In this document: piece after piece, positions 15,031 to 61,420 of the stretch | Layout of the letters: every line of letters starts with the position of its first letter | Numbering within the stretch: the stretch's first letter is position 1 | Assembly (NCBI RefSeq): GCF_037042905.1 | Contig: NC_087251.1 | Location: 4,156,001-4,220,000, forward strand | Direction of reading: 5' to 3' | Source of the DNA: Lytechinus pictus | Taxonomy: Eukaryota | DNA: 64,000 bases | Translations under genes and position numbers: made by a program | Notes under the pieces: model-generated | Databases searched by the model: none | Told to the model about the DNA's origin: nothing | Seen by the model: the letters and a program-made list of their open reading frames with translations, nothing else

Positions 15031-18000
15031 ATGGGTTGTATTCTATCTCGGATGGGTTGTCTTTTCACTGAGTGCATGACTGTCGAGAGTCCGTCAAAGC
15101 TGTTAATGATTGGTCTGGATGCAGCAGGTATACTGAAGCTCGAATCTTATTTCTTTATATTAATTCAACAATTTACTTCAAAAGTAAGATGCCTATTTAT
15201 CCAAGTCCCTCTTTCAGATTTGATATCTGCACTTGAGAGTATTAGGGGGAAATGGTGGGGGTGGTGGTCGGCCGAATATCCACAGAGTGAGAGCAATTAA
15301 TTTATTCCAAATAGCCTATATGTTACCTCTCAGCCCTCGCAATCGGTCTATGGGAATTCTATGAATAAGGCTCACATTGATGTAAATTAATCGTTGAATA
15401 ATAACATTATACCACATGATTATTCTATCAAATTGACAGGAAAGACCACAATTCTATACAGGCTGAAGCTAAGTAAAACCGTGACAGTTATCCCGACCAT
15501 CGGATTCAACATCGAGACCATCACACCGGGACCAGGTCTAACATTCGACGTCTGGGATATTGGATATTCCGAAAAACTCAGACCACTATCGAAACATTAT
15601 TACCCTGGAACACAAGGTAAGGACAACATGGCTTTAATTTATTGTTGAAAATTGATGTTACTGTATGTAGTTGTCACTTTAGGCTGCATGAGTGACTTAA
15701 GTGGAATAACGTACCCTACTTTGTTTTATACAATCGTCTGTTAATTATTTTTTCAATATTGTTTTCCGTTTTAAAGGATTTATCTTTGTGGTAGACAGTC
15801 AAGACCAAGAGCGTTTCTCTGAAGCCAGAGAATTACTACACGATATGGTGTATGCTAATGAAATGGATGCAAATATACCAATCTTAATCCTTGCCAACAA
15901 ACAAGATCTGGCAGGTATGTTTGATTTTTTTTTCATTTCTTCTTTTTATTTTCAACATACCACTGAGAAATATAAAAATTCAAAACAATGAGCAGAAATA
16001 TTTACTGACACTTAAAATGTGAAGAATCCATAAAAAAGGAACACATAAATAAAAGGACAAGTCCACCCTAACATAAAGTCGATTGAAAAAACGAGAAAAA
16101 TCCAACAAGCATTTCATCAAAATCGGATGTAAGATAAGAAAATTATGACATTTTAATTTGTCGCTTAATTTCACAAAACAATTATATGCACGTCCTGGTC
16201 GGTATGCTAATGAGGCAGGCGCGTAGCCAGGGGGGAAGGGCGGTCGCCCCCCCCCCCCCCCCCAAAAAAAAAAAAAAACGTCCCCAAAAAGAAAAAAAAG
16301 GGAAAAAAGAGAGGAGAAAAGGAAAAGGGAAGGGAGGAAAGGGAAGAAAGGTAGCTTTTTTTTTTTTTTTAATTCTTTATTTTTTTCTCAAAAGAGAAAC
16401 TCTTGCTCTAAATTTATATATGAATTTTGCTTCCGCGCTGCGCGCGGTTAAATGACAATATTAAAGTTCTCCATTGTTTCCCCCACCCTTTCTCTAACCC
16501 TGTTTTTCCACCTCAGCTATATGTGTTTCTTGCCAAGTTAAATGTACACATTAGGGCATGGAATTTTGAGTAAGATTAGGCCGAACTATATGAAGTTATC
16601 TTTTTTTTTTTATCGCGCAACTTCTGGTCGGGTCGGCTCCAGGCGGGTAAAATCAATATCTGCCGTCACCTCCATAAAGTCAACTTTTCCCGCTTTTCAG
16701 CTTAATACTAAACAACCATAATTTTGGGGCAAACAGGTTCCTAATTTAAAAAGAGGAAGGTATAAAATTCGTGTCGTATTAAATAAAAAGTACAATATTT
16801 GTATCGAATTCTATTAAACTTCATGTCATTTCCCTGCACATTCATCTCCTGTCCTGTTTTGCGCCCTCAGTTTGAAATTTTGAATGACACTTGAGATAGT
16901 TCAAAATGAAGCGCTTCAGGATAAGTCAAAGAAATTAGGCATCCTTTTTTATATAATTTCAATAAATCACAAAAGTTTCAACTTTTTGCGCACTATTTTC
17001 CTTGTAATGAAGTTCAATAATCTTATCAAATCAATTGAATTAGAGCCGATGGGCATGATGGGGTATTTCGGATATCTGCATTTTTGATGAAACGTCCGCC
17101 CTTTGAAATTTCAGAGTTTCATTGCTCTGCGCGGGGAGGAATATCTTCCTCCCGGCATATACATTTCTTCTCCTCTGTTTTGCGAGTTAAAGATATGCAC
17201 TGTCGCTAAATTGTAATCAAATCTGATCTTTCCAAGGGAAGTATTCAATGTATCTTTGAGAATACCCTTTTCTCGGGACCCTTTTCATGGCAAAAAAATT
17301 GATAACACGCTTTAGCTTCCGCGCTTCGCGCGGGTTTATTATTATTTTAATTTCCTCCATTGTATTCCTTTTTTGTGCGTTCACAATCATTTTTGAAAAC
17401 AAGGTTCAAAATCACAATATAGGCAACTGAATTGGAGCTGATATAGGTACTAGAGACAAGAGAGACGGCTCCTTTTCATTTTAATTTATGAAACACCAAA
17501 AGCTTCGCGCTTCGCGCGGGAGGGGGAAACTAGGGAGCGCGCTTCGCGCGCTCTGTAATCGTTGGCACGCTTCGCGTGCATTTACCGCCCCCTCCAAAAT
17601 GAAATCCTGGCTACGCGGTTGTAATGAGGATACTGATGACATCACTCACTATTTCTTTTGTATTTCATTATATGAAATATTTAAATTTTCTACTCATTGC
17701 CATGTGAAACAAAGTGTTATTCCTCCCTGAACATGTGGAACTACCATTGTTTTACAAAATTTTGGTTCAGTCAAGATGGTCATTATTGTCAAATCTGTAA
17801 AAAATGAAATATTTTATAATTCAAACAATAAAAACACAATAAATGGTGAGGGATGGACATCATCGACTGTCTCATTTGCATGTCACTGAGTTATGCATAT
17901 AACTGTTTTGTGAAAAATAAGCGAAATTTTAAAATGTAATAACTATCTTATTTTACATCCGATTGTAATGAAATTTTCAGTGTTATGCTTGTTTGATTTT

Positions 18001-18783
18001 TCTCTATTGAATCAAACCAATATTTTTTTAGGGTGGACTTGACCTTTAATGTTTTTTTTTAGATAAACATGAATTTCGTATTGGTATTTCACCATATGGG
18101 AGCGGGTTGTCTTGCCCCCTAGAGGAACCAAAACGTCGCGCATGATCAGAAGAATATTTTCTGACAGAGGCGTCGATCCTGAGGGGGGGGGGGCGATCGC
18201 CCCACCAATGAAAATATTGGGGTGGCAAGCATATCAATTTGCCCCCCTAATAATTCCGTAAGAGCAAAATAAAATAAAATTGTAATATCATAACAGAAAT
18301 CAGCAAATTAACCAAACACAATATAATATTTAGTTTTTACATCTATAGTACAGTACAAAATCATGATTTCTACGCGCGCTTCGCGCGGGAAACGATTCCA
18401 TCTATCATTGCAACTTTTGTTAGGTAGGCCCTACATTTACAAAGAATCTCATCATACAGGCATGCAATTCTTTTCTGCCAATGAATAAACAAGAAAATGG
18501 CAAACCCCTTTTTCCATAGGCGTATCCAGGTGAGTTATATGAGTATCTATTTTTAATTCCAATAAACTATCTAAAAAATATTTCCAAAATTTGGGCTCGA
18601 GATTTGCACTCGCAAATTTGATGGTTGAATAATGTTTTCTCTTCATGGGTAACTGCAAACAGTCCTTAACAATTTCCCTTTTCAGGCCCAGAACAATATT
18701 TAAAAATCGTGCTCGCGTTGGCGGTAATTGTTTAGTTACATACGCATCTTGTTCAGGATTACAAACATTGCTCAGAAGGCTCA

Positions 18784-18822
<39 letters not shown>

Positions 18823-19144
18823 ATATTATATATATATATAGGATATTATATATAAATATTATATATACTTCATTTTCTTAAGCAAGGGATTGCGGCTCAT
18901 TTAAATCGGACCTATATGAGCAAAAACTGAAAGCAAGACAAAATCTGTATTATTAATTACATTTTTCCTTCCATCTTATTTCCAAGGTGCACATGACGTT
19001 ACTAAGTTGATCGACGAGCTCCAACTCCGCGACCTTACCCAGAATCCTTGGCATATCCAAGGCGCATGCGCCACAACTGGAGATGGTTTGTACGAAGGAC
19101 TTATCGAATTATCAAACATGATCAGAGAATACAAGAAATCTTAA
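15031..19144 (+). CDS. ARF/ARL-family small GTPase, paralog 1 (atypical G3 motif); join(15031..15127,15440..15616,15777..15914,18987..19144), 189 aa
   Basis: All introns are GT-AG. Exons of 97+177+138+158 = 570 nt give an open frame [12 protein letters not shown]...GLDAAGKTT...IPTIGFNIE...WDIGYSEK...ANKQD...[10 protein letters not shown]...EYKKS*. G1, G2, G4 and G5 motifs and Gly2 are present. Confidence 0.93.
16054..18045. mobile_element. Kolobok-like family A element in intron 3 of paralog 1, split by a nested hAT element
   Basis: AGGACAAGTCCACCCTA ... TAGGGTGGACTTGACCT|TTAA. Confidence 0.85.
16216..17621. mobile_element. Non-autonomous hAT-like element with 8-bp TSD TAATGAGG
   Basis: TIRs CAGGCGCGTAGCCAGG / CCTGGCTACGCGGTTG (14/16 match). 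Exact TAATGAGG at 16208..16215 and 17622..17629. Confidence 0.85.
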
Positions 19145-20235: not shown

Positions 20236-20266
<31 letters not shown>

Positions 20267-24533: not shown

Positions 24534-24537
24534 ATCG

Positions 24538-26742: not shown

Positions 26743-27277
26743 ATGGGTTTATTAATGTCTCGGGTAATGACTCTCTTCAAGGATTGGTCTCAGGGAAGTC
26801 CTTCAAGAGTTCTTATGCTTGGTCTGGATGCAGCAGGTAGGTCTATCTTTTTTTGCATCTTTACGTCATTGTTTAAAATTATCATGATAATTTTTTTTTC
26901 ACTGTATGCATTATTACAACAAGTATGATCTGCTTCAAGTTATATATAGGAATATTTATAACATTGACCTCTTGAATAAAAGTACTGGAGCTAGTTAAGT
27001 AGGCATGATTTTTTTGTTTTTAAATGGAAGTAATGTTGGAGGTTATCAGGCTGACAAATATCAGAGATTGAATGTCGGAGGTAAAAATTTAAGAGGTATA
27101 TTGTCGAAGATTTAAAAAAAATATAGAAAAATAATGTCAGAAGCGCGGTGACACGGTGTTATTTCGTAAGAGCGCTATATAAATGAACATATTTATTATT
27201 ATTATTATTATTATCATTACTATTATTATTATTGTTATTATTAATAATTATTATTATTTATCATTATTATCATTATC

Positions 27278-27310
<33 letters not shown>

Positions 27311-29367
27311 GAATTATATTTACAGAAATAAAATGTTCAAAATAACTCATGTCGGAGGAAAAATTGAGCCGGATGTAAAATGTGTAGTGTCAGACGAAAT
27401 CGGCCAGGTAATAATATCACAGAGAGAGGAGGGGTTACTGATGGAAATAAAAATGAGCTTCTGATTAACTGAAGAGAATACATGTATTGCAGGGATGAGG
27501 AAGAAATGGAGGGGGGTCATGTATCTATTGCCTTGTAAATGTTAATGGATTTTTTAATTGTTCTTTTTGTTTCTAGGAAAGACTACATGTTTGTACAAGC
27601 TGAAGCTGAATGAAACAGTGACAACGATCCCTACCATAGGATTCAATGTCGAAACCGTGACACCAGTACCAGGTCTATCATTCACCGTTTGGGATGTAGG
27701 CGGTCAAGAGAAAATCAGGGCACTTTGGAGACATTACTACTATGGCACACATGGTAAGGATTATTATTTGATCTGAATTATTATCTGAATCTATTTTAGA
27801 ATTAGGGAATGCATAATTGTGTGTTTGTGCTTACTTAATGCGTCTATGAATTGGCCTACTGGAACCTTATTGACTTATCAATAAACCAAAATGGAAATTT
27901 GAGTTAAAAAAAAAACAGACAATAACATACATAGACCCGAATTATACTTTTTGTATGGAAATTGTTCATTTTTTTAAATAATAAACTACTGAGCATGACG
28001 ATCGAGTTTAATATAAATTCTTCAAAAAAAATTCAGTATAGCGAACAGCACTCTATAGGGGAAGGCGGGGTAAGTTGTGACACTTTTTGCTTTTAGCATG
28101 TTAGAATTGATATGATTAATAATCTTGTAGAAATAAGTACCTTGCCTTAATTAATTTTTCTGAAATATTTTTCACCTATATATAACTTTCTACCCCCACA
28201 CTGAAAGTCATTGTCACCTTTAAAAAAAGAGGTGTCAAATGGCTTAAATTGCCCCATCTGTGGGGTACGTTGAGCCACAAAAACTATGTACAAAATGTAT
28301 GGGGGAAGAACCGGCATGTCAATTTTTTATTTAAAGTCTTTTCACTAGCCAATTCTCTATAAATACTAACATCCTCTAAAAGGAAAAGATCAGTTATGTA
28401 AATTTGCTCCATTCTGTCTGCATATCGATGGCTTTTTAAGGTTTGTTTGTTTTTATATACATTACCATAAGAAATACCATGGCTCAACTTGCCCCATGTT
28501 GTCTGGCTCAACTTACCCCATTCCGAACTTAATGTGATAATTTCGCATCCACACATTTCTTATGCATCCATCATGTAAAAGACAAGAATGAAGATCCATA
28601 CCTGGACTAACAATGTTGTTCTTATGTCTTTATTATATTTAAAGACGTGTGTGTGTAAAAAGCACTTATCTATTTCTCACCCTTTTTACTTTTTTTTGCT
28701 GAAATCTGTATTTTTCCCTCTAAAAAAGTACTTTTTGTTTCAAAGTTGAAAACAATGTGGTGGGGTTAGGGGTTATGCAACGGGTCATCAATACATGACA
28801 CCACCACAATGTCTGACTCATTCATTATCGAACTGGGGGTGGTGGCTCAACTTACCCCTATGCTCAACTTACCCTGCCTTCCCCTAAGGTGCAGAATCTT
28901 AATTTAATTATTTTAATTCGCATGGCAGGTTGGAAATGGAGGAGGCTGCTAAAAAGCGGAGCTTGTAGAGTGCAGCCTCCTAATAAATATTTTTGTAATT
29001 ACATAGCATATAAAAATCAAAATAACAACTTGAGCATAAACCAGCTAAATAAAAAAATAAATAGGGGGAAATTAAAATAGAAAAGTAAATAAGAAAAAGA
29101 GAGATTAAAGGTCTCCAGAAGGACCTCGTTGATCAACAGGAAAACGAAAGAGATGGAACAGTGTGCGTCACATTATTTATATTCGTGTTTGATTTAAAAA
29201 AAAAGAGTTTGAGTGATGAAGAGTTATTTCAATGGTTATCTTGGAGAAACTTTTTGGAATTTAGGCTTGGTGATTCTTTGATGTTATTATCAATAGTTCC
29301 CCAGAGTTGCGTACCTAGGATTTTCCACAGGGGGGGGGGGCAAAATCGGCCGCCAAAAAAATTGACA

Positions 29368-29398
<31 letters not shown>

Positions 29399-30439
29399 GG
29401 TCTTCAAGCTCGTCTGGGGGGGGCATAAAAGGTCTTTCAAGTTCGTCAGGGGGGGCAGTGATATGTATTTTGTATGGGTTGTGGCTCGTCAGGGGGGGGG
29501 GCAGAGTGCCCCCTCTGCCCCCCCCCGTAGGTACGCTAGTGGTCTAGGGCCTTCAAAAATAAAAACTGATTTTGCAAGAATGGTCCGGGTTAGTGGTAAA
29601 TGGAATTCATCTGATTGACATGTGGGATATTTGTGAAGATGCGATATTGTATGTCAAATGTATAAAACAAACTGTGATTGTTGAAAATGGAAATAAACGA
29701 AATGAAAACGAAATGATTTTTTTTTTTCAGGTGTTATCTTTGTAGTAGACAGTCAAGATCGAGAACGATTCGCAGAAGCTCGAGGTGAACTGCTTGCTAT
29801 ACTACAAGCTCAAGAAATGACTGGGAACGTCCCTGTGCTAATACTTGCTAACAAACAAGATCTACCAGGTAGGCGATATACCTCACTCATTAAATTTTGC
29901 TATGAGAAAAACCCAGAATAATGCCACGAACGCGTGCATTATAATTGCATATTGAATATCCTTTTAAAGAAAGGTTGATACTTCACAATTTTTTCTTTGT
30001 ATTCGTATTGCAACTATTTTGTTTATATTTTGGATTATTCATGTTTATTGTATTTGCAAACATATTCTTATTTTACCATTTGTACTGAGAAATAAAAGCA
30101 ACCAAAAAAAATCTAGATAACTACATATTTATTTTCGATTAGAATAGGCAAACATTGGAAATGGATTTCTCCGATATTTTGGGTTTAATATTTCAAATAA
30201 TTTCAGATCTACCGTTTAATATCAATTCTAACCGTCATTTTATCTTCCCACATTTTTCATCAGGTGCACACGGTGTGACCAAATTGATTGACGAACTCCA
30301 ACTCCGAAATCTTACCCAGAATCCTTGGCATATCCAAGGCGCATGCGCCACGACAGGGGATGGTTTATACGAAGGACTCCAACAACTGTCCAAGATGATC
30401 CGAGAATTCAAGAAATCTGGAGGAAAGGTGTCCATGTAA
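26743..30439 (+). CDS. ARF/ARL-family small GTPase, paralog 2 (canonical motifs); join(26743..26836,27577..27753,29731..29868,30264..30439), 194 aa
   Basis: GT-AG introns, 585-nt open frame: MGLLMSRV...GLDAAGKTT...IPTIGFNVE...[17 protein letters not shown]...ANKQD...[14 protein letters not shown]...GGKVSM*. Confidence 0.95.
28058..28884. mobile_element. TA-flanked non-autonomous DNA transposon (TIR GGGGAAGGCGGGGTAAGTTG) in intron 2 of paralog 2
   Basis: TA|GGGGAAGGCGGGGTAAGTTG ... CAACTTACCCTGCCTTCCCC|TA. A second, inverted copy lies at 49225..50522. Confidence 0.85.
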
Positions 30440-32742
30440 GAAGATACCTGACACCATTAATTGACCGGTCATCTGCAAATTGGTGTAATCGCGTTGTGAC
30501 GATGTAGTCGAATGTCGATCCATGCAATATTTGGGATGAGTGGGGACGGGAGGGGGAAGGGGTTGCATGAGCGGCAACTTGGCAACAATGTTGCATGTTA
30601 TGGCCAGTATCCGGGGCGTGCCCCCTCTTTTGTTGGGGAGGCGTATCCCAGCGAGTCAAAAATCCATGGATTTAAACGCTATTCATCTAAAAAATAACAT
30701 TTTAATTTAACAATAGGCCGAAGTGACCTGAAAGAATATTAGTATCAAACTTGACGGAATTGTTTAATCTTTAAACAAAATAGATAGTGATTGATTTAAT
30801 ACCTCGGGTGTAGGAATTTAAAGTTGACAAATTATTTGCCTCTCGTTGACTTCTCATAAAGAATTCCGGAACACCTTTTAATGGTACTTTACGGCATTAG
30901 AACATGGACAAGCAAAGCTTTCATTTTGGTAATTTCTCTTTTCTCGAGTTCCAAAATTTCAACAAATTGGATTTGAAGCTGTCTAAAAGCGCCTTTAAAC
31001 GAAATGGGATGTGGCGCCCTAGGCCATAATTCATATTACAGAAGATATTATAAAAACACGTATGATTAAATGCACTTTCGTAATCCGATAAGTAAATACC
31101 ATCCCTTTTCGTAGCAAGTTTCTTTGTACTATAAAACAGCGACGAAGTTTAGATTTTGAAATGAAAATAATATGCTCGAGTATGACTTGTGTTAACAAGA
31201 TCGAAATGTATTATGTTTACATGTATTATGAAATAGTCGAAACTAATCTTAATCACACCGATCTTCATTTTTTATACTTATTTTTGTTTTGTGTGTTTGG
31301 CTAAACATGTTTGATATGGAATTAACGGTCCGAAAATATTTGTACATATTCAGCTGCAATCTATGCTCGTGAAAAGTTGTAAGAATCAACATCGTGTATC
31401 ATTATAGTTTACATAGAAAATGTGTATATTATTGTAAATAAAAGCAAAGATCACTTTATGAGAAAAATATATTTTATAATAAAGTTTCGCAAATCTATTT
31501 TGGGTGCCTGATTTCAAATATAGATAACTATACTATAAAGCATATTTATAGCAAGTGAACTCAATGAACATAATTATGTCTGGCAGTTGCGTAAAGGCTA
31601 TATGAGAGTTCACATTGAGCCACATAAGAGATAGAGAGGAAAAGACAGAGAGGTAGAAATGGATTGACGAGAGAGAGGGGGAGATGGGGGGTGAACCTAT
31701 ATGGCTCCATTCTACATTATAAGCAAAATTCGAAGCTACTTTGTTCACTAAATCCTGTCTAAAATTATCAAATTGGACTATTATTACAGCATTCAATGTA
31801 GTTTCGTTTATTAATTCTCTGAATTTTCTTGCAATTTCATTGAACAGATTTAGTGGGTTTATATACAGGTATTCTGCTTTATATGGAGATCAACCTATCG
31901 CGTTGGTTAACATGAGCCTTGTTGGTTAAGATTTGTTTTTGCATATAATTTCCTTTTGATCAACAGTTGATATGTTCATTATGTTAGCCAACCGAATTTT
32001 TTTTTCTACGAGTACATATTCTGACATTTGGTCTGATTTGATTTGCTTTATTGTTTTCTTCTGCATTTATTCGTATGAAACATTTTGTCATTACATATCA
32101 AACAATTGATTACTGTTTTTGGAATGAATCATAAAGAAAAGAAATGGATTAAAATATTTATACCAAAGTATTAAAACAATTTTATTGGGATCTGCTTTTT
32201 TTTTCTTCTTTTTTTTTACTTTAGACATCTTCCCAATAGTTTTTTCCTACAACATGCATAATAACTTAAATACTTTTATGAGAAAATGAATCAATGAATT
32301 TGAAAGTTAATCATTATTTCACCAACCTTTTTTTAATTGTCTTATTTCCACTTCGATCATGATGATTACTTATTAATATCATTTCTGGCAATGCGATAAA
32401 TGACATTCCGAAGTAGATATTTGACCGATGAGTGGACTGGACAAAGTCCCATCACGGCCTTATTCAGAGAACTTTATCAGTTTATGGTATCAGACTATCT
32501 GTCCATCTTAAATAAACATAATATTCATGCGTCTTTGCAATGCACATAAAGCAAAACATTATCATTAATCATTGGTATAGGTATGTCCTTCCGACAGGTC
32601 ACGTAACAGAGGTTACTCCATATCAAGGAGGTCTTTTTATTTATCTTTTATCCATCGCAAAAGGAACAACTTTGCAACATAAATTAGAATTTCGTCAATT
32701 TAAATGAAACTTGATAAAGATTGTCGCACCACTCCTCCATTC

Positions 32743-38376: not shown

Positions 38377-39021
38377 TAAGGAATTACCATAGGATATTAT
38401 CTTTAGTTAAGCTTCAGTTAAGGCAAGGAGCTTCCTTGGTTAAGGCAACACTCTTAGTTCATACCCAAGCTTAACTTCACGTGACATACAACACTCATCA
38501 TGCTTCTAAACCAATCAGGTACTTTGATGAGCAAATAACGCGGAAACGACCTGGATGCAACACGCATGGAAAAATATGATAGCGCTCAGTTGAATAGTTG
38601 TGATAATCTGATTCTGTTCAGTGCGGATATCGGGGAAAAGGGAGAATAATAGCGGAAAAGCTTAGAGGATTTTACCAAACTGAACGCAAATTCCTGTTTT
38701 CGTATTACCGGTATTGATTTCTTGTTGTATTGGGTTTGGACTCGTTTGAAGCAATAGAACAACGGCAGAGGGTGAACTGTGGTGGATGATCACAATGATA
38801 TCATCTTGTAGAACTTGATGAGGTTGACTGTATTCACTGCAATCACTGCAACTATTAGTGATCAATATATTTGCGGAATTTCGTGCAGTGTCGGGGTGCT
38901 CATGCAGTGGCAAACTTTCCACCAATAGGGGCTATACGAGTTGGTGCTGAGTGGGAACCAAGTTACCTTTAGACCAGTGGAGGAGCTATTGGAGAGTTTT
39001 TAGACCAAAACAGGACCAACA

Positions 39022-42000
39022 ATGGGTAATGTGGTTAACAAGTTCACGAGTGCCTTTGGTGATTGGTCCAAAAACCCTACGCGTGTTCTCATGCTAGGCC
39101 TCGATGCTGCTGGTGAGTTCTTTATTGGTATTCTTGTGATCCTGCCATGTACCCGTTTTCATTTGATCGTATTGATTTACTTTTAATGGGCCTATACATT
39201 GAACGTACATAGATCTAGATAATACCTGTAAATAAGTACTTGTAGAAGTTTCTAGTGTGCTCTGACCACCAAGTGCTAATAGTATGGTAGAAAAGGAATG
39301 GGGTAAACTTCCTGAACATGGGAGGAAACTGTAAAGAAATACAAATTTGATATTTAAAACCCTGAAACAATCTAGGCTTGACTGCTTGTATGATGTTGTA
39401 ATGAGATGTAACATTCACATATCACGTGAATGATGTCTAAGTGGTAGAAATGGGAAGAAACTTTGCATATAAAATATGGTGTGGCTCAAATACAGGACAA
39501 TTTTAAAATAATAAAATGATATTGTGATTACAAAATAATACAGCAGTTTGGTGTTGACTATTATATACGTGATCATTATAAATGTTGTGTTGCATAGGGA
39601 AATGTGAACCAGCTTTATATCATGTCTATACAGCTCCGCTCACAATGATAGGGGGTATGAAGATGACATCTATAGGGGTTCCCCCTGAACTATTTATACA
39701 TTTGTTAGCTCTCGTGTGCATTGATGTGCAATGATTATATGAAGGAAAAGAAACACACTAAAACTGAATTCTTTCTGAATGTGTTACAAAACCAACTATT
39801 CGGGTATGTGTGTGGAAATAATGATATTTCTTCCGCATTTCGCGTTTCAGTGGTTTACATGTAGTATATTGTCAGCGCTTTGGATTGTATACACCTATCA
39901 TAGTTTCTTAGGAGTAAACAAAAAAGGAGGAAAAGAAAGAAAGAAAAAAGAAGTGAATAACATTACAGCACCTATACACTTACATTACATCATTAATTAG
40001 ATATGTAATTCCAGTCAGAATTTGACTCATGAAAAAATAACTATCAATCGATGGCCCATGGGTGCAAGTTCAATTCAATTCAAATAAACATTTATTTTCT
40101 TCTATTTCATTACATTTTTCGTAAACATTAATTCATACAAAAATCAATTATTATGAAGAATATAAATATATGTTGGGTTTAAAGAAGGAGGCGTATACCC
40201 TAAAGTTATGTCTTCTCACCCGCCCCTTCTTTACCAATCCGTCACTGTCAGTTCAAAGTCTGGCTTGTATACAGTGCGTCCCACAAAAAGGACATCCGTT
40301 TTCAGAGATAGATTTCACATTTATCAAATATGTTTTTACTATAAATTTGATACTCATGGCAAGAATGGGATCTCATCTCTAATTTGAAACCAACAGCTTA
40401 GCAAATCGTTCACGCATGGCAGCTTACAAACAATAAATATTGAGGCATATCAGAAACGATTTGCGCAGAAAATCACGTGTGAATCTGAATCCACTCTAAT
40501 TTTAGGGATCAGCGAGAGACTCTTAAAGGGGTGGTCCGGGCTGAAAATATTTTTATCTTAATACATAGAGTAGAATTCACTGAGCAAAATGCTGAAAATT
40601 TCATCAAAATCGGCTAACAAATAATAAAGTTATTGAAGTTTAAAGTTTAGCAATATTTTGTGAAAACAGTCGTCATGAATATTCATTAGGTGGGCTGATG
40701 ACGTCACATCTCCACTTTCCGTTTTCTTATGTTATTACATAAAATCATAATTTTTTCATTATTTCATACTTGTGTGAATAATATGTCTCCCTTATAATGA
40801 AATAAGTTGCAGCAATAAATATCTAATGCACTAAATCAGTTGTCAATCCAATTTTTCTAGTTCTTGGAGGAAAAAATTTGAATAAACCTAATTTCATATA
40901 ATAAAATACAAAAGAACAAGTGGAGATGTGACATCATCAGTCCACCTACTGAATATTCATGACGACTGTTTTCACAAAATATTGTTAAACTTTAAAATTC
41001 AATAACTTTGTTATTTGTTATCCGATTTCGATGAAATTTTCAGCATTTTGCTCAGTGAATTCTACTCTATTTATTAAGCTATCAATACTTTCAGCCCGGA
41101 CCATCCCTTTAACAAAGAATACAAAGAAATGCTAATGAGCGAGCAAATCTTGTCCAATGTTTCTGCGCAACCTGCTTTTTGCATTAACATTTCAAACACG
41201 TCTTGTCCATTAATGTGTTAAATGTTCATCTCATATTAGGTATCAAAATAAAGAGGAATAGTTGAATTATATGATTATGTGAATGAAATATCATAATTCA
41301 ATTCAATTTTCAATTCAATTTTATTCACATCTCTTTAAAAACATCAAAAGATCAAGTTTATTCAATACAAAATACAACATATATTATAAATAACATTATA
41401 AAAGAAATGGTAAAGTTGAAGGGAGGAGGATGTGGGGGATAAACAAAAGGCCATTGGCCTGTCAAGGTAAATCCTCGAATTTACCCCACTTCAAAAAATA
41501 ATACAAAATAACACATTACGAACACACAAACACACACTGTAATTGTAGAAAACATAAATTGGAATCCCGGTTTCCCCTTTTTTCTGGGACATACTGTATC
41601 AATTCATTATACTGGGATAAGTTACTTTGATATAAAAGGAAGTTTCTATCATAATTTGTCAAATCAATTAAACATGTTATGGGGGAGCAAATAAAAAATA
41701 CATAGTAATTCCAGAAGAGACCTTTATTGGGTTGAATGTATATAACCACTTAGACTTACAAAAGATTTGCATAATTATGTTTTCAAGTATATAAACAAAT
41801 ATATAGAGCGACATTATTGAACCCGAAACCGAAAATAGTTATGCAGCTTATAGTATGTTCTGTTGGATCATTAACACATTGTTCGTACCATTTAGTATAT
41901 CTTAAACAAAATATAATTGTTTTTATTGGGATTTTTTTAATGATTAAACCAACTAAATGTGAGATATGGTTGCTAATAATGAATAACACGAGATCAGTCC

Positions 42001-43667
42001 GATAACCAATCTCTCAAAATAATATCATTGAAAGTTCTTTAAACTCATCTATTATTTAAAAGTAATAAATAGACTCATATTAAATAGCCATTATCATGGA
42101 ACAAATTGATTGCAATATAGTTTTCGATACCTGCAAAACAGGAAAAATATAAATCATTGGGAAAATTCCATTTAAAGAAGAATTGAAAACGCAAAATCCT
42201 GATCGTTATATACAGGGTCAAACGCATGTTAATAATTTTTTTTTCTCCAAAAATCAATGAATGTTAGGACTATTAACTCATTTCCATACGCCATTGTTAA
42301 TTAACCAATAACTTCCTGATCCCTTGTTGGTAACGAGTTAATAGTGTCACTGAACTAGTTGAACATGATGTTTATGATGGTGTTTATGATAATGATGGTG
42401 GTATAAGTAGTAGTTGTGGTATCGTAAGCGGTATATTTTGATGACGGATACTAATTTTGGACAACTGGCCATGACGACGACGATGGAGATGATGACGACG
42501 ATGGCTTTTTTGCGGTGATGGTACATGGTACTGGTAGTGATAGCGGCAGTGTTTATGGTGGATGGTTGTGTTAGGAGATGAAGATGGTGGTGGTGGAGCC
42601 AAAAGTGTGATAATGTTCATGATGATGATGGCAGTTTAAGACTGTAATAATTAATCAAATCCTGTTCTATCTTCTAACCAGGTAAGACTACAATCCTATA
42701 CAAGCTGAAGTGTAATGAGACTGTTCAAACCATTCCTACCATTGGGTTTAATGTAGAGACAATTACACCCGTTCCTGGTCTAACTCTCACGGTATGGGAT
42801 GTAGGTGGTCAAGAAAGACTCAGGGCGCTATGGAGGCATTACTATGTAGGCACTGAAGGTAAATATACTTACTCTTTCATGGCGTATCACAATAATTATT
42901 TACCCAGGGTAGCCACTCTCAGCTGTAAGCTGTTCTTCCAGCGGGTCCTGCATAACCCTTCTGAATTCTCATACGTCGAGCGCCTGACAACAAGGCAGAA
43001 GTTCCAATTTTTAGAAGTCTTGGTATGACTCGTATAAGAAAAAATAAAAATAAAAGATATATAGTCCCTTGTATTTTTAGGGGGTGGTGTATTAGTTGCG
43101 CCATTTATAAACACATGGAAATATAACGTAGATTCAAAATAATCATATTATGTTGAGGAAAACATAAACAGCCTTGGACTTGTTTTTATACCAATACAAA
43201 CAGGGTCAACAATATATTTTAAGCTTCCCATTTGAATCAAAGTTGAAAAAAAATATAGCTATGTATAAAATAAGATTAAACGTTTTTTTACCAAGGCAAA
43301 GTCAAGCGCAGGAATATCTTTTATGTTGTGATCCATAATGATTGCCTTTAAAATAATATTGTGTGCAAGTTGATTTTAAACAGGCCATGAAGACGTAGAT
43401 CATGTTAAGGGCAAGGCGGTATATATATATACAGTATATAAACAAAAGAAGATCTAATAGAAACGCCGCGAGGAGACATAATCTTCCAAATTTTCGGTCA
43501 TAGACCTTTTTCAGGGATGATTTTATTAAATCCAAAACAGGTTGCATCATTTGGTGATGATACCAACGCGCAATAAATACATTGCGCAACAACATAACGC
43601 GGCAGGTGCATTGTTAGAAGACATTGTGACGTAATGAGTAAAGTCCAGGCAACTATTATGACGTAGA

Positions 43668-49700: not shown

Positions 49701-52700
49701 TAGTGAGTGAGGGACGTCAACGACTCTCATTTGCATGTCACTGAGTTGTGCAAATAACTGTTTTGTGAAAAATAAGCGAAATTTTAAATTTTCGTAACTT
49801 TCTTATTTCATATCCGATTTTGATCAAAATTTCAGCGTTATGCTTGTTTGATTTTTCTCTTTTGATTAAAATCAACATTTTTCTGGGGTGGACTTGACCT
49901 TTAAATATAATAAAGAAATACGAACAATATTGTTAGCCCAGGTATGGATTATCATTCTTGTCATATATAGTTTTTTACATGATGGATGCATAAGAAATGT
50001 ATGGATGTGAAAATATGCATTAAGTTCGGACTGGGGTAATTTGAGCCAGCCAACATGGGGCAAGTTGAGCCAAGGTAATTCTTATGCTAATGTATACTAA
50101 TAAAAAAAACTTAAAAGGCCATTGATATGCAGGCAGAAAGGAGCAAATTCATATGACATTTCTTTTACTTTTAGAGGATGTTAGTATTTATAAAGAATTA
50201 GTAAGTGAAAAGACTTTAAATAAAAATTTGACATGCTGGTTCTTCCCGCATACATTTTGTACATAGTTTTTGTGGCTCAACTTAACCCAGAAGGTGGCAC
50301 AACTTACCCCACAGATGGGGCAAGTTGAGCCATTTGACATCGGTTTTTTTTTCAAAGGTGACAATGACCATGATGATTTTCAGTATGGGGGTAGAAAGTT
50401 ATTTGTAGGTGAAAAATATTTCTTTAGAATTAAATTTAAAGGCAAGGTACTTATTTCTACAAGATTATTTGTCATATCAATTCTAACATGCAAAATGTGT
50501 CACAACTTACCCCGCCTTCCCCTACTGTTTGTGCAGGTTTTAAACGAAAGTTTTGACATGTAGGGCCTAAACAGCAATGTCCAGTTCTGAAATTAATTGT
50601 TTAAAAATGAACTTCGTATTATTTTTTGAAAATTATTCAAACGTATTCAAACTGTAAGAATTGCCCATAACTTCATAAAGTAAATCAGGTCAAAGGCCTA
50701 CAGATGGGGGACCTTGGGGTGTTTGCCACAAACAAATTTTTACGACCAAGTAACAAAGGAAGGAAAAGAAAAGGGTGAAATGTCATATTATTTTCTGAAT
50801 ATTATGTTAAAATCTATCACAAAATTTTATTTTTGTACTAAAAATGTCGAAATATTTGCTCGCTCGCAACTTTTTGTGTGTAAATTTTGCCCGATATGCC
50901 AGACCTGGCGCCCTCAGAATTTTGGGCTCATTATTCCACTGAATCAGGTTGTTTGAATTTATATACTGTAGATTGTAAAGATTGTACAGTGTAATTTGTC
51001 TTTTAACTCCATAATAGTAATAGTTATACTCCATCTATAAAAAAAAAAACCCGAGGCATTCAAAATTTTTCATCTTAAAAAAAAAATTAAATGGTTAGTT
51101 GTGGGCTACCCATACAATCGCGTCTTTTGCACAAAATTATTTTGTTTAACGATTATTATGATCTTTCATTATTTTAACCCAACAATACAGTTCAACAATG
51201 AATAACTTTATCAAAAAATAAATTTTGGCTGTAGGAATCAACATCCTGATTGCAGAATAGTATACTGGTATAGCGTATAATATGCACACAACCCAAGTAT
51301 ATATGTCTAGCTGTAAAACATTATATGCCTACAATATTCATAAGTGAAACTAGCATTGTGAAAGGTTAATGAGATTATATTTTGTCATTAATAACAGTAT
51401 GGCCTATAGGGCATAACGAGTGGATGTTGATGGTGGTGGTGGTGGTGGTGAGGGGAATGGAGGGGATATGTTACAAACACAGAAAGGGCAAACTGGATTT
51501 TTGAAATAATTTTTTACTTCTATTCATATAATTCCTTATTATTTTGTGTACGTGTGAAAGTATCCCAGCTGTTGTTCGGGATCTTATCTGCATGAGTCTA
51601 ACCGTTATTTTAACCTGCCTTTCAACAGGAATCATCTTTGTAATAGACAGTGCAGATCAAATGAGATTCTTGGATGCAAGAGAAGAATTATTCAACATGT
51701 TGAATTCAGATGATATCTTGGATGGTACACCGCTTCTTATACTCTGCAACAAGCAAGACATGAGCGGTAAGATTAGTCTTTTATTTCTTTGGCCTAATTG
51801 ATAGGATTTGGGGCAGACGAGTTCTTTTTTTCACAAGAGATTTATTTTGTGACACCATAATATTTTTCATTATTCCAAACCTTTGACAGATTCATTACTT
51901 TTTAAAAGGCAGTAATAATGCCCTGGATCGAAAACTCAGTCACCTCAGCATCCAATTGCACTACTGGTTTAATTATACAATAATTTCTCATAAAGGACAG
52001 GAGGCATGATGATATACCTATATCTCTTTATCCTTAGACAAAATATTGAATTAAAAAAATATTGGGTGTGACGGTTTCCAGAAAATCAATTGTGCTCCCT
52101 CAAATATTTTTCAAGCACCTGAGAGTCGCAACCAGTTGAAAATATTTGCGGTAATCGGTAATGGGCAAAAGTCGTAAGGATATGGAACGTTTTATCATTC
52201 TGGAAATCATTGAAACTGATAATGCCTGAATTAAAAGGTGGTGCTGGTAGTTTTATCTAGCAAAGATTTTTCACCTAATTACTTTTTCTTTTGTCTTCAT
52301 AAATAAATTACCTTTCTTGTCAATGGCAATACACTTTCCGTTCATTTCCGATATATCAACGTTGTTGTTTTTTGTTTTACTTTCCTTTGTTTCTAAATGT
52401 TTTCCGGGATTGTTTCAATTTCTAACCATCCCAGCCTATGACCTCCGTTCAAAACGAATGCTTAAAATAATTCGATTGAGTTATATTTCTTTTAAGTTGA
52501 ATCTGATTTGAAGTAAATGAACTGTTAAAAGTTAATGGAAGTTAAGATGAAAATAGGAGATTGAATTATTTCATTCTTCTTAATGTCAAGAAAAAGTTTT
52601 CCAAAGACATTATCAGTACATGTTGGGTACACGCATTTAAATTCAGTCTTGTTTAAACAGTGCAAAGTTTACTCCATTCATTCCAGACAACTTGAAATGG

Positions 52701-54418
52701 GGCCGGAGGAATCCTCCTTTAACTCCCTTGCAAGTTTCATAAGATGATACTCTATGAGTTACAACTCTCAAAGTGTCTACATGTAAATTAAGTAGATTAT
52801 TATTTAGTTTAGAAACATCACTTTCAAGAGCTGCATGCCGAAATTCTCGAATCAACAGCCTGAGTTGGAGTGTATATAGCCATATAGTTTTTACTTGATC
52901 TCATGAAATCATAATGAGCTCTGTTAGTTGTGGATTGATTCAGCAAACATGATAATTGTCAGTAAAACACGATGCACAGCTCTAAACTGCTAGATTTCCC
53001 TTCTGAAAATAGAGCAAGATAATCAATGCACAAAGAAATGAAGCTATCCTAGAAAATTTCAAGTTAATATTTGGTCAACTCCATCCACCACGTCCATTTC
53101 GACAACCATTTGCCAGTGCTGACAACCTACATAAAATGCTGCACAGGTAGGCGTTTCCGGGGCGTTTCATGAAATTTGTCAGAACTGACAATGTCAGTGA
53201 ATCCTTGGTTTTGATTTGATTTGATTTGATTTATAGTTTTCTTCTGCATCCATGGAACATTCGTATAATACATTTTCCATAACATAATAAACATGATATG
53301 TTAGCATTTTTGGCATGAATCATAAATAAAGTGTATTAAAAAAGAATAATAATAATTCCAGACAAAAATGATTAACTACCAAATTATTATATGATATTCA
53401 CAATTTGCAGGAGGATTGTCATCATAAGCAGATTGCTTGAAGAAAAATGACAAATTGGCTTATAAGCACTGGCCTCTGACTGTTACTATGGTAACTGCCT
53501 GAAAATGACAGCTAGGTTGTTTGGATAAAAATATTTTGTAGGATAAAACATCGAAAAAGTCCTTCCATGAAATGATAACTTGATCTATTTGCTCTCATAA
53601 AGGGATGCACCGGGCTAAAAATATTCATATCTTAATATATAGAATAATATTCATAGATCAAAATGCTGAAAATTTCATCAAAATCGGATAACAAATAACG
53701 AAGTTATTGAATTCTAAAGATTAGCAATATTTTGTAAAAACAGTTATGCACTTCGTCATGAATATTATTAGGTGGGCTGATGATGTCTCATCCCCACTTT
53801 TCTTTTTCTTATGTTATTACATGAAATCATAATTGTCTAATTTTTTCATAAATGTGTAAATGATGTGTCTCCATTATGGTGAAATAAATTGCAGCAATGA
53901 ATAACTAATGCGCTTAATCAGTTGTCAATCTAATTGTTTTAGTTCTCGGAAGAATATTTGTAAATATATCCAATTTCATATAATAAAATACAAAAGGACA
54001 AGTGGGGATATGACATCATCAGCCCACCTAATGAATATTCATGAAGACATGCCAACTAACTGTTACACCAAAATAATGCAAATCTTTAAAATTCAATAAC
54101 TTTGTTATTTGTTATCTAATTTTGATCAAATTTTCCGCACTTTGCTTTGTGAATTTTACTCTATTTATTAAGATATAAATATCTTCAGCCTGGAGTATCC
54201 CTTTAAATATATTTTCTCTCATTCTTTCAGAAGCCGAGTCAGTCTCGAGGATCAGTGAGACCTTAGATCTGAAGAGGATCACTAAGAACCCTTGGCATAT
54301 CCAGGCCATCTCAGCATTAAGTGGAGAAGGACTTCTTGAAGGAATGACCAAAATTGCCAAAATGGTCAAGAATTTCAAAAAAGAGAACATGAAGAAAGAT
54401 CATGCATCGTCTTCGTGA
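39022..54418 (+). CDS. ARF/ARL-family small GTPase, paralog 3; join(39022..39112,42682..42858,51629..51766,54231..54418), 197 aa
   Basis: In-frame TAG upstream of the ATG, GT-AG introns, 594-nt open frame: MGNVVNKF...GLDAAGKTT...IPTIGFNVE...[17 protein letters not shown]...CNKQD...ISALSGEGL...DHASSS*. Internal exons are 177 and 138 nt, as in paralogs 1 and 2. Confidence 0.93.
40272..41596. mobile_element. Tc1/mariner-like non-autonomous element in intron 1 of paralog 3, host to a nested MITE
   Basis: TA|CAGTGCGTCCCACAAAAAGG ... CCTTTTTTCTGGGACATACTG|TA. Confidence 0.65.
40527..41108. mobile_element. Kolobok-like family B MITE (nested)
   Basis: TTAA|AGGGGTGGTCCGGGCTGAAA ... TTTCAGCCCGGACCATCCCT|TTAA. 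Confidence 0.88.
43485..43517 (-). ncRNA. Degenerate hammerhead-like motif (core G8 changed to A)
   Basis: Reverse complement reads TCC-CTGAAAA-A-GGTC(tat)GACC-GAAA-ATTT-GGA. Confidence 0.45.
43669..43741. repeat. (TA)n microsatellite
   Basis: About 36 perfect TA units. Confidence 0.95.
43750..43984. mobile_element. Penelope-like element remnant: 105-bp inverted arms with a 25-nt spacer, flanked by (TA)n
   Basis: 43750..43854 is the reverse complement of 43880..43984. It contains a hammerhead motif, with TA tracts on both sides. Confidence 0.6.
43873..43918 (+). ncRNA. Minimal type I hammerhead-ribozyme-like motif (Penelope-like)
   Basis: CTGAAGA-A-GGTAG(atgt)CTACC-GAAA-ATTT-GGA. Stem I is TCC/GGA, extendable by TTCAC/GTGAA. 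Stem III is the loopless palindrome AATT. Confidence 0.65.
46476..46747. mobile_element. Small hAT-like MITE
   Basis: CAGTGTCGTA ... TACGCCACTG, with flanks GGAATCTG / AGAATTTG (decayed 8-bp TSD). Confidence 0.5.
48914..49186. mobile_element. PIF/Harbinger-like MITE
   Basis: AGGCCTGGTCCCACTG ... CAGTGGGACCGAGTCT with TGA/TAA flanks. Confidence 0.6.
49225..50522. mobile_element. Inverted copy of the 28058..28884 element, carrying a truncated Kolobok-like family A insert (about 49415..49900)
   Basis: TA|GGGGAAGGCTGGGTAAGTTG ... CAACTTACCCCGCCTTCCCC|TA. The insert ends GGGGTGGACTTGACCT|TTAA. Confidence 0.85.
53601..54202. mobile_element. Kolobok-like family B MITE in intron 3 of paralog 3
   Basis: ATAA|AGGGATGCACCGGGCT ... 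AGCCTGGAGTATCCCT|TTAA. Body is similar to 670..1269 and 40527..41108. Confidence 0.85.
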
Positions 54419-59461: not shown

Positions 59462-59497
59462 ATCCTGATGAAGGGCATTTATGCCCGAAAGCTTGAT
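59462..59497 (+). ncRNA. Minimal type I hammerhead-ribozyme-like motif
   Basis: ATC-CTGATGA-A-GGGCA(ttta)TGCCC-GAAA-GCTT-GAT. Canonical CUGAUGA/GAAA core with palindromic stem III AGCT. Confidence 0.6.
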
Positions 59498-61311
59498 GAA
59501 GACTGGTATTGACCTTTGTCCGCAAAAATCTCGCCCCTCACATTACCTTGAATAAATTATGCCTCTGTTTGAGAGAAAGGAGGGGGGGGGTATGATGTAA
59601 AACGGATGAAAATGATAAATTTTAAATGAGTTTATAGATGAAAGGAGAAGGAGAAATTAAGAATAAGTGTAAAGATAAAACGGGATGGAGAAAGAGGGAA
59701 GAGGGTGAATGGGGGGGGGGGGGGGATAGTGTATTTGGGAGAAAGAGGGAGAGACAGACAGAGGGGGCAGGGTATAGAAATTGAAATTCAGAGAGTTGTT
59801 GTCAATCAATGTTTGATGAGTCCCCCCTTCAATACATCAACAGACACCATTATCTGACGATAGCAGACTCAGGAACACCCGATGAAGATGGAAGTGCTAA
59901 AGTTATTTAGCGCCAGCTGTAGTTGAACTGAGGCAAAACGATCACTGATCTATATATGAAAACATGAGGCGTTTGTTTGTTTGGGGAGGGGTGGAGGGGC
60001 AAAAAGAAGAAGAAGAAGAAAAAAGAAAAAGAAGAATTTTTTACTTTTCAAAATGAAACTTAATTTACAATCAAACTATAACATATATACAAATAAAGAA
60101 GAAGAAATGTCGAGTACCACTTGTGATGCAAAATGGTTTTGATGTCTGTTAGATTGTAAGTCTTTTTGGAATTGTCAAATATTCACGACCCAAAGTGGAA
60201 TTCAGATAAGTTGCTAAAATGCAACCAATATTCATCTGAAAATAATCTTTCGAGAATTACTATGCATTACAACCTGAACCCACCACTCAGGAAAGGTTTC
60301 ATCCACGTTTGGTGTAGAAGAGATGCGACATTAATGCCCGGCATTAATGTTAACGTATTTACAGCTAAATACAGTATAAACGTCCTTGTGATTGGTCACA
60401 CAATAATGCATGCACGCCGGTTGCGCACGCTCTAAAACTTAAATTTCAACAATCTTCGCTTTACGACGTTGATTGTATTGCGATCGGTTCACTTAAATTG
60501 CACTTCCCGATCTGGGAAGTAATGATACTTATAGTCTAGCTATATATATCGTTTTCAATAGTCATGTTAGAAGGTTTTGTGAAGCTGGTTGAACCTAATA
60601 AATACCCGATGATAATGATCGTCTGTTGAGGAAAACAAGAGCGCGATTACTCATAGCCTGTTAACCTCAAAGTGTAACCCAACCGACCGTGATACAGGTT
60701 ATACATTGCTCGCTAGTACTCCTACTCAAAACCTTTCAAAGTGTTAAAAGTAACAGACAAATGGCCACCACTGGCTGCATCGCATAACGTGTTTTGAATT
60801 CAACCAACTATCTCTGAGATTTTTTTGTATCCAGTACACCTTTTGGATTGTCGGCTTTAATGTACGCCCGAAATACTCTTTACTGCCACATCATTATCTT
60901 AACTATTCGTTTTCGATGAGTGGTATTATCATTCTTTTACTCAGTAGAAGCTTTGAATAATCCGTTATTTCGAATCGTCTGTGAGCAGTATACTGTTCTA
61001 AGGAATACGTCAGTCGAAAATACAACCCTGACAATAATGAACCTGTTCCGTTAGGCCCTTAACTCAAAGTTGCCAACTTTTGAATCCCAGGAAAGAGAGG
61101 GGAAAGCTGCACCATTACGTTGATGTGTGGAAGGAAATAGAAGGAGAAGGGATATCACTGGCCCTTGAAAGATCAAGGAGTTTCCAGCTACACCGTTAGG
61201 GGTATCTAGAGGTAAACCCTCTATCGATATCCTAGAGGGTGTCTCGTCGCAGTCCACTCCATTCAGCAGTCCTTCTCTTCCAAATCGACAGATAAGCATT
61301 CTATCTTCATC

Positions 61312-61420
61312 ATGGGGCATGTCATGGGAAAATTATCGGATATTTTGAGTGTAGATTGTAGATTCCCGATCAACGGTGACAGAGAATCAAGGATATTAAT
61401 GCTGGGTCTAGATGCAGCCG
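61312..61420 (+). CDS. ARF/ARL-family small GTPase, paralog 4, first coding exon only (remainder not in the window)
   Basis: [37 protein letters not shown] followed by a GTAAG donor at the same phase-1 P-loop position as the other paralogs. No exon 2 was seen before 64000. Confidence 0.85.

Follow-up and report, generated by a model that had tools for sequence, protein, structure and literature searches.

The window analyzed here is a 64,000-nt stretch of the Lytechinus pictus genome (contig NC_087251.1, positions 4,156,001 to 4,220,000). Spliced models revealed an array of four co-oriented, intact, four-exon ARF-family genes with open frames, designated g1 to g4, all on the forward (+) strand. 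In g1, exon 1 (15031..15127, 97 nt) encodes Gly2, Cys3, Cys10, Cys15, and the P-loop up to a split glycine codon; exon 2 (15440..15616, 177 nt) carries an intact switch I and an altered G3/switch II; exon 3 (15777..15914, 138 nt) contains the NKQD motif; and exon 4 (18987..19144, coding to a TAA stop) shares 88% amino acid identity with exon 4 of g2 across 50 codons. The g1 protein (189 aa) is identical throughout to the RefSeq model XP_063957785.1. The second gene, g2, comprises exon 1 (26743..26836, 94 nt), exon 2 (27577..27753, 177 nt; canonical switch I and II), exon 3 (29731..29868, 138 nt), and exon 4 (30264..30439, to TAA), where a GT donor after position 30435 overlaps the last codon and the stop. 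In g3, exons 1 to 4 lie at 39022..39112 (91 nt), 42682..42858 (177 nt), 51629..51766 (138 nt), and 54231..54418 (to TGA; spliced model), respectively. The g2 and g3 proteins are 194 and 197 aa long. Exon 1 of g4 (61312..61420, 109 nt) encodes Cys16 and a second in-frame Met-Gly at codon 5, and is followed by the start of a 17.5-kb intron that occupies the window from 61421 to 64000. Every intron is bounded by GT-AG, all three introns are in phase 1 in each gene, and intron 1 interrupts the last glycine codon of GLDAAG. The original prediction had described four co-oriented paralogs with a phase-1 intron in the P-loop glycine codon, internal exons of 177 and 138 nt, and first coding exons of 97, 94, 91, and 109 nt, and the spliced models confirmed all of these features.

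The remaining g4 exons lie beyond the window. When the search was extended by tblastn, as had been proposed, g4 was completed with the same 177/138 template, with exon 2 at extrapolated window positions 78907-79083 (contig 4234907-4235083, 177 nt), exon 3 at 85724-85861 (contig 4241724-4241861, 138 nt), and exon 4 at 86393-86610 (contig 4242393-4242610). The gene thus ends 22.6 kb past the window and encodes 213 aa; its exon 4 carries an altered G5 motif, also present in S. purpuratus and Diadema. No fifth array copy was found in the 224 kb covered (60 kb upstream, the window, and 100 kb downstream). A search of the same genome with exon 2 returned 21 matches, four of them at the array locus. 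A fifth family member, the counterpart of Arl19e, lies on the same contig 16 Mb away, and a larger array was rejected on these grounds. Because this distant member has the same 91/177/138 template, the equal exon lengths follow simply from intron positions shared across a core free of indels. Among flanking ORFs (84 chosen from 190), Pfam hits were confined to two weak kinase fragments on the upstream side and one reverse transcriptase lying about 70 kb beyond the window end. The Pfam Arf domain (PF00025) scored 184-209 bits, versus a curated cut-off of 22.3, in g1 and in the L. variegatus orthologues that represented g2 to g4 (98.5-100% identical to them). Given these scores, and given that the g1 and g3 proteins match RefSeq models letter for letter, the array is not a product of chance. 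A tandem layout of Arl19 genes was not found in the literature searched.

By sequence comparison, the array is assigned to Arl19, a family that has already been named (Vargova et al. 2021, PMC8358228). The supplement of that paper lists four S. purpuratus entries, Arl19a (XP_003730305.1), Arl19b (XP_001199912.2), Arl19d (XP_782942.1), and Arl19e (XP_001175949.1). The g2 protein is 94.8% identical to Arl19b, g4 is 97.2% identical to Arl19d, and g3, compared by eye, is about 94% identical to Arl19a; they are the respective orthologues. In a broad tree built without Arl20, ARL11, or ARL14 rows, g1 to g4 formed one clade (99/99) with three reference Arl19 proteins (SpuArl19b, SpuArl19d, and SkoArl19) and Arl4, apart from Arf1/4/6, TRIM23, Arl1, Arl2, Arl5, and Arl6. 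This bore out the original view of one local subfamily, and derivation of the four genes from four different ancient ARF/ARL orthogroups was rejected. We also rejected their being true Arfs (Arf1, Arf4, or Arf6), as they fall outside those groups, show 48-55% identity, and share one intron with Arf1 and none with Arf6; an apparent match of intron 3 to Arf6 was offset by one codon. A phase-1 intron in the Gly87 codon is common to the array genes and Arf1, and is presumably the one to which PMC8358228 refers, in the sections covered, as an Arl19 intron shared with Arf1. Gly2 is present in all four proteins, with an N-terminal hydrophobic moment of 0.26-0.55 versus 0.58 for Arf1. The interswitch-toggle signature (Asp67, Gly69-Gly70-Gln71, Arg75, and Trp78) was complete in the alignment in g2, g3, and g4. 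The array itself is therefore unsurprising, given that the family and three of the orthologues were already catalogued and that tandem ARF copies are common. The original prediction had raised the possibility of a described family with one-to-one orthologues across animals; the family is indeed described, and one-to-one orthology holds among sea urchins but not for animals at large. No functional study of any Arl19 protein was found in the searchable literature.

Conservation differed among the four genes. Identity to L. variegatus was 95.2, 98.5, 99.5, or 100% for g1, g2, g3, or g4, respectively, and identity to Diadema was 96.2% for g4 and 88.1% for g2. For g2 and g4, one-to-one orthologues with 88-100% identity occur in Lytechinus, Strongylocentrotus, and Diadema. 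For g3 they occur in Lytechinus and Strongylocentrotus (S. purpuratus by eye), and homologue searches directed at other genes returned none from Diadema, which carries no weight. Within the array, g4 is only 45-53% identical to the other genes. The fastest-evolving copy, g1, shows 69% identity to its g1-like counterpart in S. purpuratus. For pairs other than g1/g2, synonymous sites were near or beyond saturation, which points to old duplications. In an echinoderm tree that left out Arl19e, Amphiura domain 3, and two Diadema copies (long or near-duplicate branches), g4, which has a long branch, grouped with the second copies of sea stars and brittle stars (95/93), although neither the broad tree nor a tree of fewer taxa with the switch II columns removed recovered this grouping. 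A single clade of all 15 sea-urchin array sequences was rejected (p-AU 0.021; AU tests used 26 of 43 alignment rows). We consider that the g4 lineage probably separated before sea urchins and sea stars did, an origin not found in the literature searched. In the trees, g1 was nested inside the g2 clade, from which we infer that g1 arose from g2 inside sea urchins. Recent gene conversion between exons 4 of g1 and g2 was rejected, as synonymous divergence was about 1.1 and the similarity ended no more than 30 nt from the exon edges.

The distinguishing feature of g1 is its switch. In Arf1 numbering, Gly70 is replaced by Tyr, Gln71 by Ser, and Trp78 by Ser, and the same changes occur in the L. variegatus orthologue. 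In an alignment census of 178 single-domain relatives, Gly70 was kept in 164, Gln71 in 169, and Trp78 in 175, and the change of Trp78 to Ser was limited to the two Lytechinus g1 proteins. Because the S. purpuratus g1-like protein retains Gln71 and Trp78, only Lytechinus shows loss of all three residues. Position 70 is aromatic in Lytechinus, Strongylocentrotus, and five Diadema proteins; one Diadema copy also lacks Asp67, and two carry switch II deletions. The best tree gave g1 and the altered Diadema copies a single origin, with independent origins also acceptable (p-AU 0.08). Two Lytechinus species retain an intact g1 frame, and a simple pairwise estimate put the dN/dS of g1 versus g2 at 0.32, 0.17, or 0.06 in exon 2, 3, or 4, respectively; the per-exon comparison that had been suggested thus gave no sign of diversifying selection. 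An AlphaFold model of g1 kept the Arf fold (mean pLDDT 85.6), with Arf1 and Arf6 as the best structural matches and a low-confidence helix at residues 4-15; its rmsd was about 1.6 angstrom to GTP-form Arf structures and mostly 4-6 to GDP forms, a difference given no weight because canonical relatives dominate the underlying alignment.

Sections of PMC3012027 describe the roles of Gly70, Gln71, and Trp78, and by analogy g1 is likely to be hydrolysis-impaired. It probably still binds nucleotide, since the P-loop, Thr48, Asp67, Arg75, NKQD, and the G5 motif are kept. We lean slightly toward a g1 that binds nucleotide and cycles abnormally, and that may act as a weakly regulated scaffold or as a decoy for the regulators of g2. 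Ras-inspired substitutions are often poor predictors of ARL biochemistry (PMC12722892). Neither the triple change in this faster-evolving offshoot of g2 nor any biochemistry of g1 was found in the literature searched. A broader reading, which we regard as possible yet doubtful, is that Arl19 duplicates repeatedly become switch-dead partners, a copy with an aromatic residue at Gly70, the gamma-phosphate-sensing position, having been kept beside its intact parent since before the split of Diadema and Lytechinus. If so, such a copy would be a built-in decoy or an always-on scaffold for the exchange factor or effectors of its parent, and a naturally occurring dominant allele of an Arf-family switch; the same Gly70 change in two further Arl19-like proteins (P0176 and P0189) would make this a recurrent design.

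For g2 to g4, a role as Arf-type switches at different membranes is likely by analogy with Arf1 and Arf6. Following that paradigm, GTP loading would fall to an exchange factor of the Sec7 type, and the interswitch toggle would drive the N-terminal helix with its lipid out into a membrane. Effectors would be recruited through switch I and II, and the cycle would be closed by an ArfGAP via Gln71. The basic C-terminal helix may give g2 and g3 a preference for acidic membranes (plasma membrane and endosomes), as in Arl4, and the differing N-termini may tune the target membrane. Myristoylation is predicted for g2 and g3 and palmitoylation at Cys16 for g4, and g1 carries a putative Gly2-Cys3 double-acylation pattern; lipid predictions for Arl19 proteins are also given in the supplement of PMC8358228. 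The suggestion that the paralogs differ in membrane target thus stands as a prediction, in that the N- and C-terminal differences among g1 to g4 would lead to different membrane anchoring. Taken together, it is quite probable that the locus is an old tandem Arl19 cluster of three conserved Arf-type switches acting at different membranes, accompanied by g1 as a hydrolysis-impaired offshoot of g2.

The original prediction favored a different explanation, namely a locally expanded subfamily of immune or stress type in which the copies diversify against pathogens or stress. Such an expansion would fit the multiple Arl19 copies that the supplement of PMC8358228 lists for many invertebrates (nine in Schmidtea and eight in Adineta), the consecutive gene numbers in bivalves and bichir, and the fast evolution of g1 and of the several Diadema variants; moreover, among vertebrate relatives, ARL14 influences MHC-II transport and ARL11 shows lymphoid enrichment (PMC12722892). 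However, g2 to g4 are nearly frozen, at 88-100% identity across sea urchins (g4 at 96% in Diadema), and dN/dS was below 1 wherever measurable and below 0.35 for g1 versus g2, the other pairs being old duplications near or beyond synonymous saturation. Only g1 is fast, and no immune link was found in the literature searched. The contrast drawn with core ARF genes did not hold either, as Arf1 itself occurs in tandem clusters in the same genome. We therefore regard diversifying, immune-type expansion as quite improbable. It is somewhat less improbable, though still unlikely, that g1 is redundant and decaying into a pseudogene and that g2 to g4 are ordinary, partly redundant genes kept for dosage or expression differences. 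The rapid evolution of g1, its three lost switch residues, and the Diadema copies with a lost Asp67 or switch II deletions would fit such decay, whereas the canonical splice sites in the window, the frame kept in both Lytechinus species, the dN/dS in exon 4, and the aromatic residue at position 70 shared from Lytechinus and Strongylocentrotus to five Diadema proteins argue against it; likewise, a nearly frozen g4 that is so distant from its neighbors is hard to square with dosage.

The array might also yield tandem double-GTPase proteins by read-through splicing from g2 to g3 via a candidate linker exon (31848..31920, + strand, 73 nt, flanked by AG and GT). The RefSeq model XP_063957411.1 (421 aa) joins g2 and g3 with in-frame use of this exon at canonical GT-AG sites present in the window, and merged two- or three-domain models exist in Amphiura, Patiria, Acanthaster, and Asterias rubens. 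Against this, an older model fused g1 with g2 instead, even though no GT donor ends exon 4 of g1, and separate single-domain models are found in L. variegatus, S. purpuratus, Diadema, and Asterias amurensis. Tandem Arf1 genes are merged in models just as often, which points to a habit of gene prediction. Each gene also has its own stop codon, and candidate polyadenylation-like hexamers lie within 700 nt downstream of g1 to g3. Read-through products are accordingly judged very improbable, and the cluster of three conserved switches with an altered fourth copy remains our preferred reading.

Arl19 is a widespread animal ARF subfamily and the proposed source of Arl4, and with four well-separated paralogues, a sea urchin amenable to genetics offers a test set for the function of Arl19, with the natural switch change of g1 as a test of G3 glycine loss in an Arf. 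Separately, Arl19-like proteins were found in amphibians, coelacanth, lungfish, and bichir. This runs against the published statement that vertebrates lack Arl19, and may matter more to specialists.

Compared with Arl19 as presented in the covered parts of PMC8358228, the array is alike in its orthologues of Arl19a (g3), Arl19b (g2), and Arl19d (g4), in being multi-copy as in other invertebrates, in sitting beside Arl4 in the tree, and in sharing one intron with Arf1. It differs in that none of the four S. purpuratus entries corresponds to g1 and in that tandem clustering and switch II loss are absent from the text sections covered. With Arf1 and Arf6 (PDB 1hur, 1o3y, and 2j5x) the array shares the fold, the G1-G4 motifs, Gly2, and the N-terminal helix, and with Arf1 also intron 2; within the same genome, g2 has 55% identity with an Arf1 and 54% with Arf6. 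In contrast, the array genes carry a one-residue insertion with Pro in the interswitch and a longer basic C-terminal helix, and their introns 1 and 3 are off the Arf1 positions. Arl4 shares the Arl19+Arl4 branch with the array, both in the broad tree and in the covered parts of PMC8358228, and has basic C-terminal residues as well, which target Arl4 to the plasma membrane according to the portion of bioRxiv 10.1101/2025.10.27.684887 covered; unlike the array genes, Arl4 in this genome lacks introns and stands as a separate gene, with only 38-42% identity to them. Finally, the atypical ARLs (ARL10, ARL13, ARL15, and ARL16) and class II pseudoGTPases such as RND lack the switch II Gln (PMC12722892), and g1 resembles them in having lost the catalytic Gln while retaining nucleotide-binding motifs, but differs in having Tyr for the DxxG glycine and in its apparent origin by duplication within sea urchins.

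A six-frame motif scan of the window, which spans C7:4156001-4220000, identified four P-loop exons, all on the plus strand (positions 15112, 26821, 39097 and 61405). Exon edges were read off the sequence and then spliced by script; the resulting models of the first three genes (g1, g2 and g3) encoded proteins of 189, 194 and 197 aa, respectively, each from four coding exons with three GT-AG introns, all phase-1, and with a 177-nt and a 138-nt internal exon. First-exon lengths in g1 through g4 were 97, 94, 91 and 109 nt. By tblastn over the window with a 60-kb upstream and a 100-kb downstream flank, g4 was completed beyond position 64000 with three further exons (213 aa on the shared template, reaching extrapolated window position 86610), and no fifth array gene was found in this range. 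The original prediction of four co-oriented genes was thus borne out in every detail, including exon lengths and intron phase. The array is ∼71.6 kb long and its proteins are 45-70% identical pairwise, with g1 and g2 the closest pair. Intron 2 occupies the position of an Arf1 intron, and intron 3 lies one codon off an Arf6 intron. Between and inside the genes were palindromic elements of ∼600-1100 bp, resembling non-autonomous DNA transposons, and 163-192 bp tandem repeats (window 664-1274, 33049-34166, 40523-41112, 53598-54206 and 8816-9622). Two open frames lay about 65-72 kb beyond the window end: one for a reverse transcriptase (stretch L008:44-1777, plus strand; Pfam RVT_1, E 1.5e-22) and another of 892 codons that matched nothing in Pfam (L007:6411-9086, minus strand). 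Two fragments ∼9-13 kb upstream of the window (L009:660-1070 and L010:7245-7469, both minus) matched protein kinases weakly, with scores under the Pfam cut-off.

The array had been proposed as a locally expanded, diversifying ARF/ARL subfamily. It is real and was correctly described, but the family is already named: Arl19, an ARF subfamily of Holozoa that branches with Arl4, beside Arf6 (Vargova et al. 2021, PMC8358228), for which Arl19a, b, d and e are tabulated in S. purpuratus (PMC8358228). Three of the four genes are catalogued through strongly conserved S. purpuratus orthologues; g2 matched Arl19b (P0214, XP_001199912.2) at 184/194 positions, g4 matched Arl19d (P0230, XP_782942.1) at 207/213, and a count by eye put g3 ∼12 substitutions and a single gap away from Arl19a. 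In a 51-row tree that included L. pictus Arf1 copies, Arf4, Arf6, TRIM23 and Arl1, 2, 4, 5 and 6, g1-g4, three reference Arl19 proteins and Arl4 formed one clade (99/99); Arl20, ARL11 and ARL14 were left out, and the outgroup, not cleanly on one side of a branch, is approximate. An Arl19e counterpart (201 aa; C7:20507380-20519250, stretches L037 and L018, minus strand) also carries the 91/177/138 template, which is therefore a family trait; its switch II is degenerate, without Gln71, and its tail is arginine-rich, as by eye in its S. purpuratus orthologue.

RefSeq XP_063957785.1 (Lytechinus pictus) is identical to g1, and the second half of XP_063957411.1 (421 aa) is identical to g3. The latter model fuses g2 and g3 in frame through a 73-nt linker exon (window 31848-31920), with a canonical donor at 30435 overlapping the g2 stop codon and an acceptor at 39004, 18 nt ahead of the g3 start; an older gene model fused g1 with g2. 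The g2-g3 fusion is either an artefact or read-through.

Whether the array DIVERSIFYING like an immune family, as originally predicted, is answered mostly no. Identity to L. variegatus was 95.2%, 98.5%, 99.5% and 100% for g1 through g4, and identity to Diadema was 88.1% for g2 and 96.2% for g4. The g1/g2 dN/dS values were 0.32, 0.17 and 0.06 in exons 2, 3 and 4, synonymous sites being near or beyond saturation in every other array pair. The least conserved exon of g4, used as query, matched a single cluster out of 34 candidates, and the members named there are Diadema, Lytechinus and Strongylocentrotus proteins. Adjacent accession numbers together with contigs of equal length, an indirect basis, suggest that the array cluster is retained in L. 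variegatus, S. purpuratus and Diadema. A published alignment holds nine Arl19 copies in Schmidtea, eight in Adineta and three in Mnemiopsis (PMC8358228). A literature search on sea-urchin coelomocytes matched sea-cucumber works only. Nor do core ARFs provide the contrast that had been drawn, as Arf1 is likewise tandem in L. pictus, with three copies on C1 (28.73-28.77 Mb) and three plus one on C13 (cluster at 11.46-11.52 Mb; stretches L020-L024, L035 and L036). One C13 copy is divergent in P-loop and switch I.

In a search to which subscription papers were mostly inaccessible, no literature was found on ARF tandem expansion in echinoderms, nor a description of the Arl19 tandem layout or of g1. 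Within the accessible literature the name Arl19 occurred in at least two works, and one review bore on Gly70 and pseudoGTPases. What is new here is the altered switch of g1 and how old the cluster probably is. In g1, Gly70, Gln71 and Trp78 (Arf1 numbering) are replaced by Tyr, Ser and Ser; these residues are, respectively, the gamma-phosphate sensor, the catalytic residue and a brace for Gly69 and Arg75 (PMC3012027). Among 178 distinct stored single-domain relatives, a non-random sample of top search matches and their cluster members, Gly70 occurs in 164, Gln71 in 169 and Trp78 in 175. The P-loop, Thr48, Asp67, Arg75, NKQD and G5 are retained, and the predicted model keeps the Arf fold. From these motifs and the model, we lean slightly towards a g1 that would bind nucleotide with impaired hydrolysis and altered effector or regulator contacts. 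S. purpuratus XP_030855302.1 shares only Gly70 to Tyr; five Diadema proteins have Phe at this position and His, Gly or Arg at 71. With XP_030855302.1 and several Diadema proteins, g1 nested in the g2 clade (97/98, 39-row tree), also when switch II columns were removed (93/92, 26-row tree); a separate origin of the altered Diadema copies was not rejected (p-AU 0.08). Two Arl19-like proteins whose sequences do not resemble the g1 lineage at first sight (P0176 and P0189) also have Gly70 to Phe, possibly a repeat of the g1-type change.

As to age, g4 grouped with second copies of sea stars and one brittle star (95/93) and g1, g2 and g3 grouped together (88/80) in the 39-row tree, and a topology uniting all 15 array sequences from sea urchins in one clade was rejected (p-AU 0.021). 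Against this, the g4 stem is long, and the g4/sea-star grouping was not resolved in the 26-row tree or in the 51-row tree. A pre-urchin origin of the g4 lineage nevertheless appears likely from these sequence comparisons. RefSeq models with two or three domains in Amphiura, Patiria, Acanthaster and Asterias rubens suggest that tandem Arl19 genes occur there as well.

Eight proteins from frogs, axolotl, a caecilian, lungfish, coelacanth and bichir (P0093, P0096, P0151, P0156, P0159, P0188, P0202 and P0204) formed a 100/99 clade within Arl19 plus Arl4 in the 51-row tree, which lacked ARL11 and ARL14. Vertebrates are said to lack Arl19 (PMC8358228), but the accessible part of that supplement has no Xenopus, Latimeria, Danio, Gallus, mouse or lamprey entry. 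Some of the eight are labelled ARL14 in UniRef; they could represent a slow ARL14 lineage or link Arl19 with ARL14. No literature on Arf-family members in amphibians or coelacanth was found, again mostly outside subscription papers.

N-terminal hydrophobic moments were 0.26, 0.38, 0.55 and 0.53 in g1 through g4, with cysteines at 3, 10 and 15 in g1 and at 16 in g4. Myristoylation is predicted for Arl19a and Arl19b but not Arl19d, for which palmitoylation at Cys16 is predicted (supplement of PMC8358228). Basic tails are reported to direct Arl4 to the plasma membrane and to be frequent in Arl19 (bioRxiv 10.1101/2025.10.27.684887); C-terminal Lys/Arg counts were 3, 5, 6 and 5 in g1 through g4, and acidic residues numbered 1, 1, 2 and 5. 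Given these differing termini, the earlier idea that the four proteins may occupy different membrane targets is plausible. In g4, Met-Gly recurs in frame at codon 5 (window 61312-61329), and exon 4 carries an unusual G5 motif (L003:2393-2610); S. purpuratus and Diadema have both features as well. Arf1 and Arf6 cycle through GTP loading by Sec7 exchange factors, helix insertion and effector recruitment. If Arl19 follows this paradigm, Sec7 exchange factors would load g2-g4 with GTP, and the three proteins would place an N-terminal helix in a membrane and recruit effectors.
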